Shown here piece after piece: positions 39,119 to 52,270 of a stretch of DNA of 64,000 nt (the stretch's first letter is position 1; the number at the start of each line of letters is the position of its first letter). Source of the stretch: an uncultured delta proteobacterium. GTDB lineage: Bacteria > Desulfobacterota > Binatia > UBA9968. The DNA is taken from assembly GCA_963745835.1 (NCBI GenBank), contig CAVUZH010000003.1, positions 448,001 through 512,000 on the forward strand, given 5' to 3'. Below the pieces are notes generated by a model. That model saw only the letters and a list, made by a program, of their open reading frames with translations. It was not told the origin of the DNA and did not search any database. A program made the position numbers and the translations under genes.

Positions 39119-41167
39119 ATGCGATCGTGGACCGTGGATGCCGACGACATCCGGGTCGCCGAAGACTTCGACGAGGCTCTGCTGCACCGCACCCCCGAGA
39201 TCGACAACTTCCTGAGCCTAGACCGCGATGACAAGTTCATCGTCATAGGGACGAAGGGATTCGGCAAGACACTGCTGCTTAAGGCCAAGCGCATCCTGTA
39301 CCAGCGCCGGGGAGGGACGGCATGTCTTCCCACCGGCAATCTCCTCGACAAGCTGATCGGCGACAAGATTTTCGGCAAGGAGGCTCTCGCCTTCTTTTCG
39401 GCGTCGTCGCTTCCATGGGCCAAGGTGTGGCTCACTGCCATCGCGGTGACCGTTCTCAAACATCTCCGCCAGACCGAGGGACTCAAGGTCAACCCGAGGC
39501 TGACCCGCCTGATCACCGACGAACAGCTGCACGGCGTCATCGATCATTTCGTGCGGCTCCTGGATTTTCCACCGAGCGACCTTCAACGCAGCGCGAGTGA
39601 CACCGACGGTCACCTGGCTCCGCGCCTGCGAGCGGTTAACACGTCGGTGACGATCTTCCTCGACGGCGTCGACGAGTATTTCAACAAGCATATCGAAAGC
39701 GTCCGGAACCGCCCAAGCGTGGCGGGTGAGCTTTCGCCAGACGTGTGGCACTTCGCCCAGCTTGGGCTTGTCGAGGTGGCCTACCAGCTTCGGCGGATCA
39801 ACCATCGCCTCAAGGTCTTCGCGGCCGTAAGGAAGGAGGCGTATGCGCGCCTCCAGACAACCGTCATGGGCCAGCAGTATCGCGGCAGCGCCATCGACAT
39901 CGTCTATCCGATCGAGAGCCTGCGCGAGATCTTCATCAACAACGTTCGGCTTGAGAAGCCCGATCGGATGATTCGTCCCGAGCGGCTACGTACCAACCCC
40001 GTGGAGGCTTTTCTCGGCCGAACATCGATCACGGATCTCTACACCGGTCTTCAGGAAGATGCGTTCGAGTATCTGTGTCGGCACACATTACTCCGGCCGC
40101 GTGATTTGATGACCATCGGTGAGCGGCTGGCCACACTCCGGCCCGAGGAGCGGGGGAATGAATACCGACTGAAGGAGGCGGTGAACCAAGCCGCAACTGA
40201 AATTGCCCAGGAGTACCTGGTCGAGATTGCGCCGTATGTTGCGGGATTGGATCTCGAGCATGTCCTCCGCCGACTTCCCGGGCACGTGTTGACCCGCGAT
40301 GAGCTCGAGGAGCTTTTTCGAACGCACAATGCCTCGAGCGGCGCGCTCGAGGCGCAGGACGTCTTCTCTGCGCTTTATCAGGTGGGACTCCTGGGTCACG
40401 TACATCATGACTGGGTGCGTGGAGAGTGGGTTCAGCGCTTCCTTCGACCGGGCGAAGGCACGCTTCAACCAGACGGCGTACTCCCTGCGGCGGAACACTA
40501 TGTTGTCCACCCGGTTCTCTCCGAAGTGATCGGCCGATTCAATCCGTTATATCTCCAACGGATCGATCGAGTGAATATCGTCGGACACGGACTGCCGTGG
40601 CGCGCGACGCCGAGCGTCGATCGAACCGTCGCGAGCGGCATGCTCTTTGTTCTTGCCGGCGACGTTCACGGATTCGGCGGACTCATGCGCGCCGGCGTGG
40701 ACGCGCCTGTCCGTCAGGCGCTTGAGGAGGCGGTGAGAAAATGGGCTCAGGGCGCAGTGTGCGCTGAGACTAGCGCCGGTGACGCGGTGTTCATCGTCCA
40801 CGATGATCCGGTCGAGTTGGCCCGAGCCGGCCGTCACATCATCGACGAGGTGTATCGGGCTCCGGGCCAACCTCGCCTGCGGATCGCACTGCACTATGGC
40901 GAAGTGCTGACCCGTCGGCGCGAGGGTGACGGGGCCGTCATCGTTGTGGGCGGAGAGGCCGTGCTCTGCGCGGCGCGCGTCGAACCGCACGTGCAACCCG
41001 GACAGATCTGGATGACCGAGGAATTCCGCGAGCAACTTGCCCGGCAGCCCTCGTTGTGGCGGACCACCCCAGCGACCGGCCCGGGCGGAGACGAGCGCTT
41101 CAACGTGAAGAAGGAGGGGAACACAGAACCGGACCTCTGGCTCCGACTTTATCGGCTCGAGTTTTGA
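39119..41167 (+). CDS. P-loop ATPase (Sll1717-like) fused to a C-terminal class III nucleotidyl cyclase domain
   Basis: Walker A GTKGFGKT, Walker B IFLDGVDE, RPRD motif, LY.VGLLG wHTH-like segment; cyclase AGDVHGF, AGDAV, RIALHYGEV, GEAV..AARVE, PGQIW.TEEF. Confidence 0.85.
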   Translation: MRSWTVDADDIRVAEDFDEALLHRTPEIDNFLSLDRDDKFIVIGTKGFGKTLLLKAKRILYQRRGGTACLPTGNLLDKLIGDKIFGKEALAFFSASSLPWAKVWLTAIAVTVLKHLRQTEGLKVNPRLTRLITDEQLHGVIDHFVRLLDFPPSDLQRSASDTDGHLAPRLRAVNTSVTIFLDGVDEYFNKHIESVRNRPSVAGELSPDVWHFAQLGLVEVAYQLRRINHRLKVFAAVRKEAYARLQTTVMGQQYRGSAIDIVYPIESLREIFINNVRLEKPDRMIRPERLRTNPVEAFLGRTSITDLYTGLQEDAFEYLCRHTLLRPRDLMTIGERLATLRPEERGNEYRLKEAVNQAATEIAQEYLVEIAPYVAGLDLEHVLRRLPGHVLTRDELEELFRTHNASSGALEAQDVFSALYQVGLLGHVHHDWVRGEWVQRFLRPGEGTLQPDGVLPAAEHYVVHPVLSEVIGRFNPLYLQRIDRVNIVGHGLPWRATPSVDRTVASGMLFVLAGDVHGFGGLMRAGVDAPVRQALEEAVRKWAQGAVCAETSAGDAVFIVHDDPVELARAGRHIIDEVYRAPGQPRLRIALHYGEVLTRRREGDGAVIVVGGEAVLCAARVEPHVQPGQIWMTEEFREQLARQPSLWRTTPATGPGGDERFNVKKEGNTEPDLWLRLYRLEF

Positions 41168-42191: not shown

Positions 42192-42968
42192 ATGAAAATG
42201 ATTTCACCTGTTAGCGAGTCGGCATACTCCAAAGCCGTAATCGCAGAGTACGGAACTCTCTTGTTTATCTCGGGACAGGAGTCGATCGATCAAGACGGAA
42301 GACTGATCGCGCCCGGGGATTTTAACGGACAGATTCAGCAGGTTTGGAACAACATGCGAGCCATCCTGGACAAGGCCGGCGGCACGCTCGACAAGATTGC
42401 CACGATGACGGTTTACACCACCGAACGCCGCTGGGGCCGGCAGTTTACCGGTGGTCGAAAAGAGATTTTCAAGCAAGGTTTTCCGGCCAGTGCATTTGTC
42501 GAAGCTAGAAAACTCCGGACTCCGGGAGCGCTGCTACAGATTCCGGCCATCGCCGTTTTGGATGAAAGGAAAAGAAATATGAGCGAGTCGCCTGAGAAAT
42601 TATTCATCGATCCGTTACCTCAACTTGGGCAGTCACGGGCCGTCAAGGTGCACGGAGGCAGTATGGTTTTTCTTGCCGGTCATACGGCTGGAGAAATGCC
42701 CAACGGCAGCGAAGCCTTCAATTTTACGCTCCAGGCAAAGCGTACGTTTGACAGGATAAAAACCTCCATAGAATCAGCCGGCGGCCGGCTATCCGATATC
42801 GTCAGCATGTCGGTGTTCATGACCGATATGCGGCACGTGTCCGAGTTTCAGAACGTGCTCAGAGATCTTTTCGGTGACAATTTGCCGGCGAGCTCCTACG
42901 TGGAGGTAACCCATTTGGCTCGACCGGAACTTCTGATAGAGATTCAACCCATCGCCATCGTGGCCTAA
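42192..42968 (+). CDS. Tandem RidA/YjgF/UK114-domain protein
   Basis: Two Rid repeats: YSKAV..LFISGQ...AGG.L..I...FPAS and SRAV..VFLAGH...AGG.LSDIV...LPAS...LIEI. Confidence 0.88.
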   Translation: MKMISPVSESAYSKAVIAEYGTLLFISGQESIDQDGRLIAPGDFNGQIQQVWNNMRAILDKAGGTLDKIATMTVYTTERRWGRQFTGGRKEIFKQGFPASAFVEARKLRTPGALLQIPAIAVLDERKRNMSESPEKLFIDPLPQLGQSRAVKVHGGSMVFLAGHTAGEMPNGSEAFNFTLQAKRTFDRIKTSIESAGGRLSDIVSMSVFMTDMRHVSEFQNVLRDLFGDNLPASSYVEVTHLARPELLIEIQPIAIVA

Positions 42969-43054
42969 CAGGCTGCTGAAAAAGACCCATATGCTTCGTT
43001 ACGCTCAAATCGCCTCTCGGGTCTTTTTGAACAGCCTGCAACCAAAGTTTTTCA
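42965..43054. mobile_element. MITE family A, copy 4 (short variant, right end truncated)
   Basis: CTAACAGGCTGCTGAAAAAGACCCATATGCTTCGTT...TTTTTGAACAGCCTGCAACCA.AGTTTTTCA. Confidence 0.8.
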
Positions 43055-43535
43055 CCAGAGAGCGCACCATGCGATTACCTTCTTTGGTGATATGCCCATG
43101 GCGTTCGGTCTCCGCGCTCTGACGCACCCGCGGCGCCAACCCAAAGTAGCTGGCCAACTTCTTAGCATTAGAAAATCGAGCAATCTCGCCAATCCAGCAG
43201 CTCATCGCCACCGCACTGACCGCTCCCACTCCCGGGATCGTCATCAGCCGCTTAGCCGAGCCATCTTCAAGAGCGATCTTCATCAACTCTTTGTCCAGTC
43301 CTCCATCTGCCGATTGACAAACCCCAAAAGCTCCACATCTTCTCCCACAATCCTCGGAGCATAGCCGCTGAGATCCTCGGCTCCCGAGACTTGGGGTTGG
43401 GCCCGCTGAAGCTTGGCTTGGGGATCGATGTTTCGCTTGGCGTAAACCGCACGCAGTTCGTTGATCACAGCGGTTCGTTGACGCACCAGGCGCGCCCGGT
43501 GGGTCAGAAGCTCGCGAATATGGCGTTGTTTTGAG
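43055..43535 (-). pseudogene. IS110 family transposase internal fragment
   Basis: RQRTAVINELRAV (one frame), then LMTIPGVG..SA...IGEIARF.NAKKLASYFGL.P..RQS...GHITKEGN; both ends missing. Confidence 0.85.
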
Positions 43536-43569
43536 GAGGGACAAGTTCAGCAACCTACTAGGAGAATGG

Positions 43570-44574
43570 ATGCAACTACTTTTCCTCGTGCTATTAACTT
43601 TCCTACTGGGATCTTCGTTCGATCTTGCTTATGCCCAATCCGAAGATGAGCTCATAGCCGGAGCCAAGAAGGAGGCAAAAGTCACCTTCTGGAGCGGCAT
43701 GGCGCTGGACGATTCGCGTCTGGTGGCCGCCGGGTTCGAGAAAAAATATCCCTTCATCAAGGTCGATATCTTCCGGGCGGGAGGCGAGCAGATCGTGAAC
43801 CGCGCCATCGCCGAGACAGGCGCCGGACAAAACACAGCCGACGTACTCAATGCATTCGCTTTGAAGGTGCTGCAAGAAAGAAATTTTCTGCAACCGTACG
43901 CCGCCCCTGAAGCGGCCGCTTATCCGGCCGCCTACAAGGATCCCAAAAATTTCTGGGTATCGTTGAAGAACAATTACAATGTCATCGGTTACAATTCGAG
44001 GCTGGTCAGTCCTCAGGAAGCTCCCAAGAACTGGGAAGATCTCCTGCATCCACGTTGGAAAGACAAGCTTGGCATGGACGACGAAGAGTACTTCTGGTAC
44101 GCCGGGATGCTCAAACACTGGGGCGAAGCGAAAGGCAAAAAATACATGGAAGCGCTGGCCAAGCAGGGCATTCAGTGGCGTAACGGCCACAATCTCCTGG
44201 TCGAACTGATGGGCGCCGGCGAGTACCCGGTGTCGGTCGTGATCTACCCTGAACGCGCCGAACAACTCAAAGCCAAAGGGCAAACCGTCGAGTGGGTGAA
44301 AACCACCGATCCGATTCTGGTCAATATGGACATCATGGGCATCGCCGCCAAAGCGCCGCACCCTAACGCGGCAAAACTGTTTTTTAACTATGTGCTTTCC
44401 AAGGAAGCGCAGATGATTCTTCACAGCCGCCATCGCATCTCGGCGCGCACGGATATCCCGCCGCTGGTAGCGAGCATGGAGCCCAAGAAACTTCCATTGG
44501 TGCCGCTCGATCCGGCGATTCCGACGAATGCGAGCATCGTTCGGGAGTTCCGATCTGTCTTCGGATTGAAGTAA
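43570..44574 (+). CDS. Extracellular solute-binding protein (Fe3+/thiamine SBP clan)
   Basis: Signal peptide from ATG 43570; GAKKEAKV, FEKKYPFIKV, PKNWEDLLHPRWK, APHPNAAKLF. Confidence 0.9.
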   Translation: MQLLFLVLLTFLLGSSFDLAYAQSEDELIAGAKKEAKVTFWSGMALDDSRLVAAGFEKKYPFIKVDIFRAGGEQIVNRAIAETGAGQNTADVLNAFALKVLQERNFLQPYAAPEAAAYPAAYKDPKNFWVSLKNNYNVIGYNSRLVSPQEAPKNWEDLLHPRWKDKLGMDDEEYFWYAGMLKHWGEAKGKKYMEALAKQGIQWRNGHNLLVELMGAGEYPVSVVIYPERAEQLKAKGQTVEWVKTTDPILVNMDIMGIAAKAPHPNAAKLFFNYVLSKEAQMILHSRHRISARTDIPPLVASMEPKKLPLVPLDPAIPTNASIVREFRSVFGLK

Positions 44575-44701
44575 TAGGTGATCTTACGCGCACAGCGCAA
44601 TTAGCCATTCAAGCATCCGCACGTGCCACGTTCACGGGCACGAAACCGCTTACGGTGATACGTTGCGCGCAGTTAGCCGGCCGAAAGGAGAGGACGTGAC
44701 G

Positions 44702-45475
44702 ATGGAAATGACAAGTGACAAGTTCGTCTTGTTCACCCAACCTGGTTGAAGCAGTTGCCTTAGAACGAAAGAGTTTCTTTCGAAAAAAGGCATCGATTTT
44801 TCAACTATCGACGTTCTGAACGATCCCGCGGGGCGAGAGCAGTTGCTCAGCCTGGGAGCGCAGAGTGTGCCGGTCCTGTCAAAGGATGGCCAGTTCATCT
44901 TCTGTCAGAATATGGAAGACGTCGCGGAATTCGTCGGCCTGCAAGGCAGCGGACACAGTCCTCTTCCTCCCGAAGCATTGGTCGAAAAGTGGATCACCGT
45001 GCTGCGCGCATCGCAACGCTACGTCCGCCAGATTCCCAACCCGCGACTCACGGAACGAGCTATCGAAAATCGCGACCGCTCGATCCGGCTCCTAAGCCAT
45101 CACATCTTTCGCATCGGCGAAGCTTTCCTCGAGACCGCGTTGGATGATGTGGAATACCGCACCAACAATGCCAACGTGCCGCCCGCCGATGGCAGCTGCC
45201 TGACCGGTGTAGCGATTGCGGCTTATGGCGACGGGATTATCGAACGGATTGAGAACTGGTGGACCCAGCTTGAAGACAAATCCTGCCGGCAAAAGGTCAG
45301 AACGTTTTATGGCACGCCGCCGATGCACCAACTGTTGGAGCGCTCAACCTGGCACTCGGCGCAGCATGCGCGCCAAATGATCGCCGTGCTCGAGCGCTTG
45401 CGCATTGAACCCGACAATCGGTTAACCGCTGAGGATCTTGCCGGACTACCTCTCCCGGAAGGGATTTGGGAGTAG
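44702..45475 (+). CDS. Probable selenoprotein: glutaredoxin/NrdH domain (UxxC) fused to a DinB-like thiol-transferase domain
   Basis: AGGAGAGG RBS, ATG 44702, FTQPG-TGA(44747-49)-SSC-LRTKEFL..KGIDF...SVP in frame with the 44843-45475 ORF; DinB SIRLLSHH and WHSAQH..Q. Confidence 0.85.
44756..44792 (+). promoter_or_regulatory. Bacterial SECIS-like hairpin
   Basis: Lower stem TGCCTT/AAGGCA, upper stem CGAAAGA/TCTTTCG, apical loop GTT starting at the 24th nt after the UGA. Confidence 0.7.
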
Positions 45476-45707
45476 TAGAGCATCAGCGATGTTTCACGAT
45501 GAGGCTTCAAAAATCTCACGTGGTCCTCGGGTGTAAGCGTAGTGCGTCGTTCCCGTCAACCGTAAGCAGGACCTCGCCGAAACGTTAGTTGTTAATCCAC
45601 AAGACTTTGCCAATCTCGCCTCCTGCTGATTTGCATAGGCTTGCGAGATTGGCTACTGTCGAAAGTTCTACAATCAGCTGCAAACCCACGTTCATTTCTG
45701 GAGGAAA

Positions 45708-46970
45708 ATGCCCAAGCACGCCGAAAGCGCGCAGAGTGGAGCCGCATCAGCTAAACCGGTGGCTTTCGCTGCGTTGCGCCACCGTGATTTTCGTGTTTTC
45801 TTTCCGGCCACCATGCTCGCCATGATGGCCGACAATATCGAGCACGTGATCAGTTACTGGTTGTTGTTCGAGAAGTTTCAGTCGCCTGTGCTGGCGGGCT
45901 TTGCCGTGATCAGTCATTGGACGCCGTTTCTCTTGCTCTCTGTTTACTTCGGCGGCCTGGCCGATCGCTACGATTGCCGCAAGCTGATTCAGATTGCCCA
46001 AGTGATGTATATGGCGGTTTCGGTCGCTTGGGCAATTCTCTTTTTCACGGATAGTCTCGAGGTTTGGCACGCCTGCGTGCTGCTCGTGATTCACGGCATC
46101 GCCGGCGTCTTCTGGACACCTGCCGAGCAACTGCTGATTCATGACATTGTCGGCCCCGAAGATCTGCCGAGCGCGGTGCGGCTAAACTCGACAAGCCGGC
46201 AGTTGGGGATTTTGCTCGGGCCGGCGGTGGGCGGCGCGATGATGCTGTGGCTCGGCGCGCCGGCCGGCTTGCTCATCAATGCGATCATTTATCTGCCGTT
46301 AACTGTCTGGCTGATGATCGTTCCTTATACCGGCCATATCCGCGACGATGCGCCGCCGCGGCGCGCAATGGCTTGGAAGGATGCCATCGGCACGGTGCGG
46401 CAGATAATGGAGCACCGGCCGATTGTGACCATGATCGCGTTGGGCGGCGCTGCCTCGCTATTTGTCGGCAATGCGTTTCACGCTCAGATGCCGGAGTTTG
46501 CCCATGACCTCGGCACGGAGAAAGCAGATCTGACGTACAGCGCTTTGCTTGCCGCCAATGCCGCGGGGGCGGTAGTGGGCGGGTTCGTGCTCGATGGCAA
46601 GGACTGGGTGCCACCGACGGTGAGGTCGGCTATTCTCTGCGCAATCTTGTGGTGCGTGGTGATGGCGGCTTTCGCTTTTTCCTACAGCTATCCGTTGTCA
46701 GTGGCGCTGTTGTTTTGCGCCGGAGCTCTGAATCTCGCCTTCTACTCCACGGCGCAGACTATCGTTCAGCTGCAGGCGCCGATTGATTTGCGCGGCCGGC
46801 TGATCGGTTTGTTTACCATGTCAGCCTATGGCCTGCGCGCCTTCAGCGGCGTTACCGTCGGCGTGGTCGGCGGCTTGATCGGTATCCACTGGTCTCTGGC
46901 GCTGAGCTCGATGATTCTTCTGGGCATTACTCTGGCATTATTCGCTTTTGCGCTGCCTGCGCAAGAATGA
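45708..46970 (+). CDS. MFS transporter (MFS_3/EntS-like)
   Basis: FAALRHRDFR, GGLADRYDCRKL, about 12 hydrophobic segments, LRGR..GLF. Confidence 0.9.
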   Translation: MPKHAESAQSGAASAKPVAFAALRHRDFRVFFPATMLAMMADNIEHVISYWLLFEKFQSPVLAGFAVISHWTPFLLLSVYFGGLADRYDCRKLIQIAQVMYMAVSVAWAILFFTDSLEVWHACVLLVIHGIAGVFWTPAEQLLIHDIVGPEDLPSAVRLNSTSRQLGILLGPAVGGAMMLWLGAPAGLLINAIIYLPLTVWLMIVPYTGHIRDDAPPRRAMAWKDAIGTVRQIMEHRPIVTMIALGGAASLFVGNAFHAQMPEFAHDLGTEKADLTYSALLAANAAGAVVGGFVLDGKDWVPPTVRSAILCAILWCVVMAAFAFSYSYPLSVALLFCAGALNLAFYSTAQTIVQLQAPIDLRGRLIGLFTMSAYGLRAFSGVTVGVVGGLIGIHWSLALSSMILLGITLALFAFALPAQE

Positions 46971-50625: not shown

Positions 50626-51231
50626 CTACAAAAGCGGTTTAACCGATGGGCGCTGCTTCATCTTCTGCAGCCAGCCATCGAGCCGCGGCAAGGAAGGATC
50701 CGGCAGGGCGCCATAGTCTTCGAATCGGAAAAAGCGCGCCAGCAGATCGATATCAGTCAGGCTCAGTTCGCCGAGAAAATACGGCTTGTCGCCCAGCGCG
50801 TCTTCGAGATAGCGCATGAGTTCTCTTAAATTCCGGCGCGTCTCGCCGATGATGGTCTGATCGCGCTCGGTGTCCTTCTTCAACATCTCGCCGCGCAATG
50901 CCCAGTAAGGCTCATGCATGTATCTCAAACCGTAGTCGACCAAAACGCGGCCGCGCGCGCGCAGATACGGATCTTTCGGCATCAGCGCAGGCTGCGGATA
51001 CTGCTCGTCCAAGTATTCATTGATGATGCAGGATTCAAAAAGCACTTTGCCGTTGTCATTGATCACCGGCACCTTGCCGTACGGATTGAGCTTTAAGAAT
51101 TCAGGTTGCTTCTGTTCTTTCTTCGCAAGGTCGAGGGTCACCCGTTGGTAGGCGAGTCCTTTCTCATGCAGAACGATTTTTACCCGATCGCTGTTAGCCG
51201 AGGGCGACGCATCGTACAACGTAATGGCCAT
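50626..51231 (-). CDS. Glutathione S-transferase family protein
   Basis: LNPYGKVPV, LFESCIINEYLDE, LSLTDI; start ATG 51231. Confidence 0.9.
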   Translation of the reverse strand: MAITLYDASPSANSDRVKIVLHEKGLAYQRVTLDLAKKEQKQPEFLKLNPYGKVPVINDNGKVLFESCIINEYLDEQYPQPALMPKDPYLRARGRVLVDYGLRYMHEPYWALRGEMLKKDTERDQTIIGETRRNLRELMRYLEDALGDKPYFLGELSLTDIDLLARFFRFEDYGALPDPSLPRLDGWLQKMKQRPSVKPLL

Positions 51232-51355
51232 AGGTTCCTCCCGCAAGGTAAAATCGCCGGAACGGCGCATTGCAGATCATAGGAATCTTATATTTAGAAG
51301 TCGCGGCGATTTGCAATCTGTTGCTGCATTTCTATTGGTTGGATTGACGAGACGG

Positions 51356-52270
51356 CTATCGTTTGGGCGCGCTGACCAGCACGACCGAGCCGATGATCAG
51401 ACTCGCGGCAAACAACGTGCGCCCGGTCATCGGCTCGTTCGCAAGAAAGTAACCGAGCAAAACTGCGACCAGCGGGTTGACGTAAGCGTAAGTCGATACC
51501 AGCGGTGTCGGCGCCACGCGCAGGAGCCAGACATAGGCAACAAAAGCCGCGGAACCCACCGCAGTCAGGTACGCCAGCGCGAGCGCCGAGCGTGATGAAA
51601 CCGCGCCGATATCCAGGTGGTTCCATTCGCCAGTAATGGTGGCGATCACCAGCAGTGCGACACCGCCGGCAAACATTTCCATGCCGGTTGCCAGTAGCGG
51701 TGACGCGGCAAGTCTTGCGGTCCTCGCATACAGAGAGCCGATCGCCCATGAGAGCGACGCAAACAGCACAGCCGTGGTGCCGAACAGATTGAAGACAAGG
51801 GCATCGCTGGCGGCGAACCGGATCAGCAGAACGACCCCGCCGAAGCCGATGAGAATGCCGATGATCGCAGCAACGCTCGGTCTTTGTTTGCCCCGCCGGG
51901 CCGAGTCGATGGCGACCATCCACAACGGTACCGTAGCGACCAGCAGCGCGGCGAGACTGGACGGAATGAACTGCGAAGCCCAGACCACGCCGCCGTTGCC
52001 GCCGAGTAAAAGAAAAATTCCGACGGTGGCGGCGCTGCGCCATTCCACTGCCGTGGGTTTGGCATCACCGGCGAAACGACGCCAGGTGTATAAACATGCT
52101 CCAGAGACGATGAAGCGAAAGGCCGCAGAGATAAACGGGGGAGTTGTTTCGACCGTGAAACGTATCGCCAGATAGGTAGATCCCCAGATGAGGTAAACCG
52201 CCAGCAAGGCCGACCAGATTGCCAGCGCAGAGGCTCGGTATTCCTGTGATGCCGGTGTTAACTGCCTCAC
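51356..52270 (-). CDS. EamA/DMT family transporter (YedA-like)
   Basis: VYLIWGSTYLAIR, RF..SG, GNGGV, STYAYVNP.VAV.LG; about 10 TM segments. Confidence 0.92.
   Translation of the reverse strand: MRQLTPASQEYRASALAIWSALLAVYLIWGSTYLAIRFTVETTPPFISAAFRFIVSGACLYTWRRFAGDAKPTAVEWRSAATVGIFLLLGGNGGVVWASQFIPSSLAALLVATVPLWMVAIDSARRGKQRPSVAAIIGILIGFGGVVLLIRFAASDALVFNLFGTTAVLFASLSWAIGSLYARTARLAASPLLATGMEMFAGGVALLVIATITGEWNHLDIGAVSSRSALALAYLTAVGSAAFVAYVWLLRVAPTPLVSTYAYVNPLVAVLLGYFLANEPMTGRTLFAASLIIGSVVLVSAPKR

Follow-up and report, generated by a model that had tools for sequence, protein, structure and literature searches.

A predicted selenocysteine-containing glutaredoxin fused to a DinB-type domain in an uncultured member of the Binatia

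A probable selenoprotein gene interrupted by an in-frame TGA

A genuine but mis-annotated selenoprotein gene, encoding a selenocysteine (Sec, U) glutaredoxin (Grx) fused to a DinB domain and predicted to support metal- and thiol-dependent chemistry, is very probably present in a stretch of DNA from an uncultured delta proteobacterium (Desulfobacterota; Binatia; UBA9968). The stretch comprises 64,000 nucleotides (assembly GCA_963745835.1, contig CAVUZH010000003.1, positions 448,001 to 512,000 of the forward strand) and is referred to at its full length as the window, with positions counted from its first letter. Within it, a TGA at 44747–49 is the sole interruption of the frame that runs from ATG 44702 to the TAG ending at 45475, and comparison with related loci makes it highly likely that this UGA is decoded as Sec. 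The elements of the gene model are as follows.

44702–45475, + strand: predicted full selenoprotein coding sequence, ATG 44702 to TAG 45473–75, 257 residues when translated with TGA as U
44687–44693, + strand: Shine-Dalgarno-like run GGAGAGG, 8 nt 5' of ATG 44702, as read from the sequence
44747–44749, + strand: UGA predicted to be read as Sec (U16), the first position of a UxxC redox motif
44843–44845, + strand: TTG start taken by mechanical open reading frame (ORF) calling, at residue 48, giving 210 aa with a cut Grx domain

A hidden selenoprotein had been proposed at this locus in an earlier sequence-only reading, which placed there an ATG, a ribosome-binding site, a TGA at the first Cys position of a CxxC motif and an intact SVP motif. 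Each of these elements, with its coordinates, was found to be exact when the sequence was read again, and translation reproduced the 257-residue frame with its single TGA. The read-through protein contains F-T-Q-P-G-U-S-S-C at residues 11–19, S-V-P at residues 55–57, S-H-H at residues 132–134 and H-S-A-Q-H at residues 218–222. A GGAGAGG-type upstream run is also present in the three closest relatives, and an in-frame ATG or GTG lies 9–21 codons 5' of the TGA in 19 of 21 loci from related genomes. A scan for promoters and terminators gave none above chance.

Conservation of the TGA and the Cys-containing homologues

Of 131 related loci, 117 have TGA at the aligned position; the remaining 14 comprise eight loci with Cys and six that were not recovered by the filter. 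A tally of TGA against Cys at residue 16 had been put forward as a check on the prediction, and homologues of both kinds were found at the aligned position. Within the window's own order, a long match was present in 21 of 41 genomes and TGA occupied the equivalent position in 19 of these 21, the two exceptions being a contig that starts after the site and a frameshifted copy. The order contains two Sec subfamilies, with 65–95% and 26–30% identity to the window protein, and the G-U-x-x-C motif is found in both. Members of the second subfamily (L034–L041, from genomes G009, G011, G012, G013, G015, G017, G022 and G033) read Y-Y-R-P-G-U-F-T-C, have an identical 18-nt hairpin core and belong to further genera within the family and order of the window.

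When each species was represented by a single genome, a scan yielded 221 confirmed loci, which puts the number of species-level genomes with a copy at 221 or more. TGA was found in 78 of the 80 loci kept, with one of the other two cut by a contig end and the other frameshifted; the scan relied on a peptide pattern immediately following this position, which introduces a bias toward the motif and not toward particular codons. An even sample of 301 genomes from the order Burkholderiales, to which locus L093 belongs, gave 50 matches in 35 genomes, 39 with an in-frame TGA and 11 without, one of the 11 being a C-terminal fragment. The loci counted include some from unpublished genomes (L027 in G018, L038 in G012 and L155 in G247), and no claim is made on these alone. 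In two copies, L033 (G006:C7) and L098, the reading frame shifts between the segments for Grx and DinB, which may be an assembly error or the mark of a decaying copy.

The Cys forms were identified at the protein level. A search with residues 1–70 returned 41 proteins, and each of the 15 full-length sequences fetched (254–273 aa) has Cys at residue 16, in C-S-S-C or a motif close to it. Of 7541 cluster representatives, the best 150 include at least 46 full-length CxxC proteins recognized with a regular expression, and visual inspection added about 17; apart from one Ser form, the rest start 3' of the site, many of them exactly at M-(T)-K-E-F-L-S, as expected of truncated Sec forms. One representative (P0304, 261 aa) carries Ser at both redox positions (S-T-S-S), and in another (P0215, 721 aa) the Grx-DinB module is C-terminal, at residues 471–716.

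These comparisons bear on whether the TGA might be an ordinary stop, with the gene being the 210-aa ORF from TTG 44843 or from another downstream start and the 15 upstream codons being untranslated or a tiny leader peptide. Mechanical ORF calling reads the locus in this way, as do the best 120 database homologues, all of which are N-terminally truncated 'hypothetical' records of 200–238 aa. However, a start at residue 48 would halve the glutaredoxin fold, and conservation of the protein extends across the TGA down to 26–30% identity, with the Cys forms continuous at this point. Termination at the TGA is therefore considered very unlikely.

A conserved hairpin downstream of the UGA

A hairpin that fits the model of a bacterial selenocysteine insertion sequence (SECIS) is predicted directly after the UGA, with two parts.

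44766–44782, + strand: predicted SECIS core, a 7-bp stem (44766–72 with 44776–82) closed by a GUU loop (44773–75)
44756–44792, + strand: lower stem of 6 bp (44756–61 with 44787–92) enclosing the core, predicted in the window

The core starts 17 nt after the TGA, and the G that opens the apical loop, claimed by the sequence-only reading at +24, was confirmed as the G of GTT 44773–75, 24 nt after the TGA. A stretch of 71 nt folds with a predicted energy of -22.8 kcal/mol (z -3.74), a value that none of 200 shuffles equalled, and the 49 nt counted from the TGA fold at -14.6 kcal/mol (z -2.62), with one of 200 shuffles as good. Bacterial SECIS elements have been described as having a loop of 3–9 nt with G as the first or second nucleotide, an upper stem of 4–16 bp, a distance of 16–37 nt from the UGA and a minimum free energy of -7.5 kcal/mol or lower (PMC13188914). 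On all four counts the window hairpin lies within these limits, with a 3-nt GUU loop, a 7-bp stem, a spacing of 23 nt and a minimum free energy of -14.6 kcal/mol.

Codon use across the hairpin was compared in the 125 of 131 loci that the filter recovered, consisting of 117 Sec forms (102 distinct sequences) and eight Cys forms. In the 102 distinct Sec forms, codons +6 to +11 are nearly fixed, as ACG in 93 sequences (GCG in eight), AAA in 101, GAG in 102, TTT in 100, CTT in 101 and TCG in 102, while the invariant Pro and Gly just 5' of the TGA are specified in the same sequences by all four of their codons. The eight Cys-form loci retain the K-E-F-L peptide with mixed codons (AAG in seven and AAA in one, GAG in five and GAA in three, TTC in four and TTT in three, and four different Leu codons). 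The freezing of synonymous sites in the six hairpin codons, confined to Sec forms, is the strongest argument that the hairpin would function as a SECIS.

In the Burkholderiales sample, the core was present at 21 of 22 Sec loci, L138 being the exception, and at none of eight Cys loci. An absence of any conserved hairpin among homologues had been named as grounds for rejecting the prediction, and the core was instead found to be conserved, in TGA forms only. The upper stem pairs are identical in 94–96 of 96 distinct sequences. The single Sec-form locus among these 96 with a substantially different core (L138, on G332:C140) has an alternative stem, GGACC/GGUCC, around a shorter inner helix, and a loop that does not start with G. 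The hairpin had originally been described as two-tiered; both tiers are indeed predicted in the window, but only the upper one is conserved across the family.

Selenocysteine machinery and independent assemblies

The genome was expected to contain the Sec pathway if the prediction held, and all four selABCD genes were found. In the same assembly, selA (608 bits), selB (394 bits) and selD (383 bits) all score above their curated cut-offs and stand head to tail on contig C22 (L001, L004 and L012, G000:C22:65479-70161). A tRNA-Sec scores 74 bits, also above the curated cut-off, and was called by ARAGORN as tRNA-SeC with anticodon tca. The selD gene has a TGA in frame within its G-x-A-A-K active-site stretch, and on this basis selD is itself a selenoprotein gene. 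TGA terminates 14 of the 32 long frames of the window, which indicates that the codon is not reassigned in this genome.

The possibility that the UGA is read through mainly as another residue, either as Cys or Trp by near-cognate decoding or as Cys carried on tRNA-Sec when selenium is scarce, was weighed against this background. Selenium supply in soil varies, which would allow for such decoding. The complete Sec pathway, together with a hairpin that fits a SelB-dependent SECIS and a frozen SECIS that plain read-through would not need, argues for Sec insertion, and read-through as a different residue is judged improbable.

The window is wholly or partly present in 20 public runs from 10 studies. 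That the TGA is intact in independent data, a check proposed for raw reads, was borne out at the level of contigs: those from three DNA runs, belonging to three studies, show no difference at 44747–49, and the two site-spanning contigs (X1 record 1 and X7 record 25) have two differences each, both elsewhere. A metatranscriptome contig of about 92% identity also spans the TGA, which is a sign of presence and not a proof of transcription. The RNA runs hold only 0.10–0.17 of the words of the stretch, and the lack of RNA-contig cover over parts of the gene in X15 is evidence of nothing. Precisely across 44755–44785, contig depth summed within each of the four runs increases several-fold (in X1 from 17.5 to 88.3), which suggests that the exact hairpin sequence is common to many organisms in soil metagenomes.

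The same data address the idea of a pseudogene, in which a Cys codon, TGC or TGT, has mutated to TGA in this lineage or has been altered by an assembly error. A single base change would suffice, and frameshifted copies do exist (L033 and L098). Against this, 117 of the 131 loci, which represent two or more bacterial orders, have TGA, the contigs of three studies agree, the rest of the frame is intact and the specialized hairpin co-occurs only with TGA. A decayed or misassembled Cys gene is thus scarcely credible as an explanation of the locus.

Domain structure of the read-through protein

The read-through protein is predicted to consist of two domains. Their calls as Grx and DinB, first made from motifs, are supported by Pfam, by a confident AlphaFold model and by fold searches.

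44723–44932, + strand: glutaredoxin-fold domain, residues 8–77, with cis-Pro V56-P57 (Pfam PF00462, model and fold matches)
44969–45397, + strand: DinB/YfiT-type four-helix-bundle domain, residues 90–232 (fold matches and family profile matches)
45101–45103, + strand: codon of His134, first of a putative metal-binding His triad, His in 151 of 151 aligned rows
45353–45367, + strand: H218-x-x-x-H222, second and third of the triad, conserved in 149 (H218) and 150 (H222) of 151 rows

The Pfam Glutaredoxin family (PF00462) matches residues 9–66 with 52.1 bits against a cut-off of 22.9, and matches 19 of 19 family members. A model built by AlphaFold on 19 relatives reached a pLDDT of 93.6 and a pTM of 0.90, with Grx secondary structure from E8 to H77. 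When searched as a fold, residues 5–80 matched 3zij (Z 13.2, RMSD 1.4 Å) and 7c10 (Z 12.2, RMSD 1.9 Å). NrdH-type and thioredoxin-like proteins match about as well as glutaredoxin does; the NrdH-redoxin model TIGR02194 gave 40.6 bits, below its cut-off of 85.75.

For the C-terminal domain, 15 of the 19 family members were matched by the DinB_2 profile with E ≤ 0.01 (best 1.6e-8) and seven of the 19 by PF05163 (DinB; best 2.7e-9). The fold of residues 86–245 is closest to 6iz2 (Z 15.7, RMSD 2.5 Å, 144 of 144 residues aligned). Eight DinB-type entries besides 6iz2 score Z 13 or more; YfiT (1rxq) reaches Z 13.6, maleylpyruvate isomerase Z 13.4 and a mycothiol S-transferase of M. tuberculosis (8f5v) Z 12.4, and the Foldseek target-normalized TM-score was 0.84. 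On the model, this part of the protein folds as a four-helix bundle of the DinB/YfiT type, and its His triad is conserved. In the same 151 rows, other residues are also conserved (P57 in 150, R124 in 145, R126 in 144, R224 and Q225 in 150 each); the columns of U/C16, C19 and K-E-F-L belonged to the inclusion filter of this alignment, and their invariance is by construction.

In the DinB superfamily, a His triad holds a divalent metal in bacillithiol, mycothiol and glutathione S-transferases. A selenoprotein whose DinB domain is something other than a thiol S-transferase is nevertheless a possible, if doubtful, reading. Such a domain might sense metals or redox state, hydrolyse a substrate with the help of a metal, or form C-S or C-Se bonds in an iron-dependent manner, with the Sec-Grx as its built-in reductant or selenium handler. 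The fold also occurs in YfiT, named a 'probable hydrolase', in maleylpyruvate isomerase and in the N-terminal domains of EgtB, OvsA and SenA (Z 10–13.6), and genes of the DSBA-like, old-yellow-enzyme and SDR kinds are among those next to Cys forms. The protein, however, ends at residue 257 with no C-terminal sulfoxide-synthase domain, and its closest whole-domain matches are stand-alone DinB/YfiT proteins.

Comparison with known proteins and catalogues

Among solved structures, the best sequence match is Grx1 of Clostridium oremlandii (7c10/7c12), with E 2.9e-9 when the protein is compared alone and 5.5e-21 when the family profile is used. Grx1 is natively a selenoprotein whose structures were solved as a Cys variant, and it has been proposed to reduce MsrA (PMC7642778). 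It shares with the window protein a glutaredoxin fold and a Sec that opens the U/CxxC motif: U16 aligns with the first active-site Cys of 7c10, and a K-E-F-L-S stretch follows the active site in both. Unlike the window protein, Grx1 is a stand-alone protein of 84 residues with a CPHC-type motif and no DinB domain.

Structural matches to the C-terminal domain come from members of the DinB/YfiT superfamily, including DR0053 (6iz2), YfiT (1rxq), the M. tuberculosis mycothiol S-transferase (8f5v), BstA (5wk0) and the mycothiol-dependent maleylpyruvate isomerase (2nsg). These are four-helix bundles that match residues 86–245 with Z 9.8–15.7, but at a sequence identity of 6–18%, with no fused glutaredoxin, and with no selenocysteine in the titles of the entries.

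The full two-domain architecture is found in Cys forms such as P0133 ('NrdH-redoxin [Burkholderia sp. SRS-W-2-2016]') and P0134 ('glutaredoxin domain-containing protein [Paraburkholderia sp.]'). These proteins have 254–273 aa, 61% identity to the window protein over the matched part of residues 1–70, the CxxC..K-E-F-L arrangement and the His triad. They differ from the window protein in having Cys in place of Sec, and eight of eight Cys-form loci lack the hairpin and show unconstrained codons. As far as their names show, the Cys-form Grx-DinB proteins are uncharacterized.

A glutaredoxin-like fold with a G-U motif is also characteristic of the UXX-star and HUGP/GUXX-star families (NF041212, NF041211, NF041114 and NF045501), which match residues 4–64 in part, with scores that fall well short of the curated cut-offs, such as 38.3 bits where 66 are required. 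Judged by their name, these families end just after Uxx, whereas the window protein has UxxC and continues for 241 residues past U16. Glutathione S-transferases (GSTs) and E. coli Grx2 (GrxB) likewise have a thioredoxin-fold head followed by an all-helical domain; a weak GrxB match was seen over residues 14–121 (E 7.9e-5) and GSTs appear in the fold searches. By analogy, the architecture of the window protein resembles that of a GST or Grx2 in which a DinB bundle would replace the GST helical domain. A GST-like fold for the whole chain was considered and set aside as analogy only (Foldseek RMSD 10–15 Å; VIA Z 8.5–9.4, RMSD 4.8–6 Å). On the model, the helical domain resembles a DinB bundle more than the C-terminal domain of a GST. 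Pfam gave neither GST_N nor GST_C for the window protein, and one of 19 relatives gave GST_N_3 at E 0.0043.

In NCBIfam release 20, only partial glutaredoxin-type matches below the cut-offs were obtained, and no full-length model exists there for the family. DinB does not appear in the main text of a 2026 review with a family table (PMC13188914), of the BSepDB (PMC13326102) and deep-Sep (PMC12013277) articles, or of the GOS selenoproteome (PMC2398784). A search of the literature on selenoproteins or selenocysteine with DinB, DinB-like or glutaredoxin returned nothing on a Grx-DinB family. Generic 'Grx' and 'Grx-like' UxxC selenoproteins are listed in the same four articles (PMC13188914, PMC13326102, PMC12013277, PMC2398784), and fragments of the Grx-DinB family could have been counted under such headings, including in supplementary tables.

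Phylogeny and a related Sec-glutaredoxin

A quick, unrooted tree was built using FastTree from 151 rows, comprising 81 Sec and 70 Cys forms. The input consisted of the 86 of 131 loci that passed a length and single-U filter (45 were dropped), to which 65 database Cys forms were added. At least three changes between Sec and Cys are required on this tree, against a mean of about 50 in shuffles. Named records in the clade of the window protein are titled as metagenome-assembled genomes of Candidatus Binatia or 'Deltaproteobacteria', and in this unrooted tree Sec forms of Burkholderiales type surround the clade, a placement with 99% local support.

A stand-alone Sec-glutaredoxin of 82 residues is encoded in the same genome (L164:1378-1563, minus strand; G000:C16:526722-526907). 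It reads Q-P-G-U-L-F-C ... A-K-E-F-L-S, and a further TGA closes the frame. Its hairpin lies at an equal distance after the UGA and is two mismatches from the core of the hairpin in the window.

Tentatively, Grx-DinB may represent an old, uncatalogued class of selenoenzyme, a metal- and selenium-dependent thiol transferase or reductase with a GST-like build made of different parts, in which Sec would be ancestral, the Cys forms would be repeated losses, and the window lineage would have acquired the gene by transfer or shared it with Burkholderiales. An ancestral Sec is suggested because a frozen 17–18-nt SECIS is common to two subfamilies of 26–30% identity and a near-identical hairpin occurs in the stand-alone Sec-glutaredoxin.

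Gene neighbourhood

In the window, the gene is flanked by an SBP_bac_6 gene (43531–44574) and an MFS_3/MFS_1 gene (45708–46970). The SBP and MFS neighbours reported by the sequence-only reading are therefore present as described, but the setting is conserved only in close relatives and for this reason says little about function; the MFS gene is common only to a few of them. Across 81 loci, the commonest neighbours encode TctC, Amidohydro_2, NMT1-like and SBP_bac_6 binding proteins, PrpD and an AMP-binding enzyme. The neighbours of the eight Cys-form loci are unrelated to one another and include DSBA-like, old-yellow-enzyme and SDR genes.

In the fetched flanks (within 1.5–4 kb), selA or selB was found at 12 of 131 loci, all of Burkholderiales type and within the range L082–L160 (L082, L096, L140–L143, L145–L147, L153, L154 and L158), and at no locus from the lineage of the window. 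Elsewhere in the window, a 182-aa ORF on the minus strand (43005–43553) with a partial Transposase_20 match (IS110/IS116/IS902-type) overlaps the start of the SBP ORF, a short way upstream of the selenoprotein gene. Other nearby ORFs encode a 258-aa protein with two RidA/L-PSP domains (42192–42968) and a GST_N-containing protein (50626–51270, minus strand). Two long ORFs, of 682 aa (39119–41167) and 249 aa (51294–52043, minus strand), gave no Pfam match at E ≤ 1e-5.

Weight of the evidence, proposed mechanism and significance

Several observations weigh against the interpretation of the gene as a Sec-glutaredoxin fused to a DinB domain. The steps of UGA decoding are deduced from conservation. 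Across the 96 distinct hairpin sequences, the upper stem is invariant and covariation is consequently silent on it, while pairing of the lower stem holds in 70.5% of cells, with a covariation score that 140 of 500 shuffles equalled. Given this pairing and the lack of significant covariation, the lower stem is probably not essential. A search of 44500–45600 against Rfam (4227 families, E up to 10) gave no match, although Rfam has no model for a bacterial SECIS of this kind and the result says nothing either way. The sel genes are not adjacent to the window gene but on different contigs, and contamination of the bin is estimated at 9.33%. The RNA evidence amounts to one assembled contig (~92% identity), and DNA may have been present in its library. 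At the level of the single protein, DinB_2 (PF12867) matches residues 104–226 with 16.1 bits, below the cut-off of 24.8 (E 0.016). Finally, neighbours differ between lineages and provide no functional lead (81 loci).

If the gene is a selenoprotein gene as proposed, the ribosome would start at ATG 44702, and the mRNA hairpin located 17 nt after the UGA would recruit SelB with Sec-tRNA(Sec), leading to insertion of Sec as residue 16. The U16-x-x-C19 centre of the Grx domain could then cycle between selenol/thiol and selenenylsulfide states. The triad of His134, His218 and His222 in the DinB bundle would hold a divalent metal, as in the S-transferases of the superfamily, with Sec as the attacking nucleophile by which a conjugate or mixed disulfide of a low-molecular-weight thiol may be formed or resolved. 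The most likely function, put forward with low confidence, is that of a metal- and thiol-dependent redox or transferase enzyme, an enzymatic role suggested by the fold and the conserved residues.

Selenoproteins are systematically lost in annotation, and at the window locus the gene model can be corrected. The Grx-DinB protein would add a fused two-domain architecture to the prokaryotic selenoproteome, and its exceptionally uniform natural SECIS may be of use in pattern searches and in testing how SelB recognizes its target. For the enzymology of the DinB superfamily, it would bring a member with a built-in selenol redox centre. In uncultured soil and freshwater Burkholderiales where the gene stands beside selA or selB, Grx-DinB may be what keeps the Sec machinery in place.

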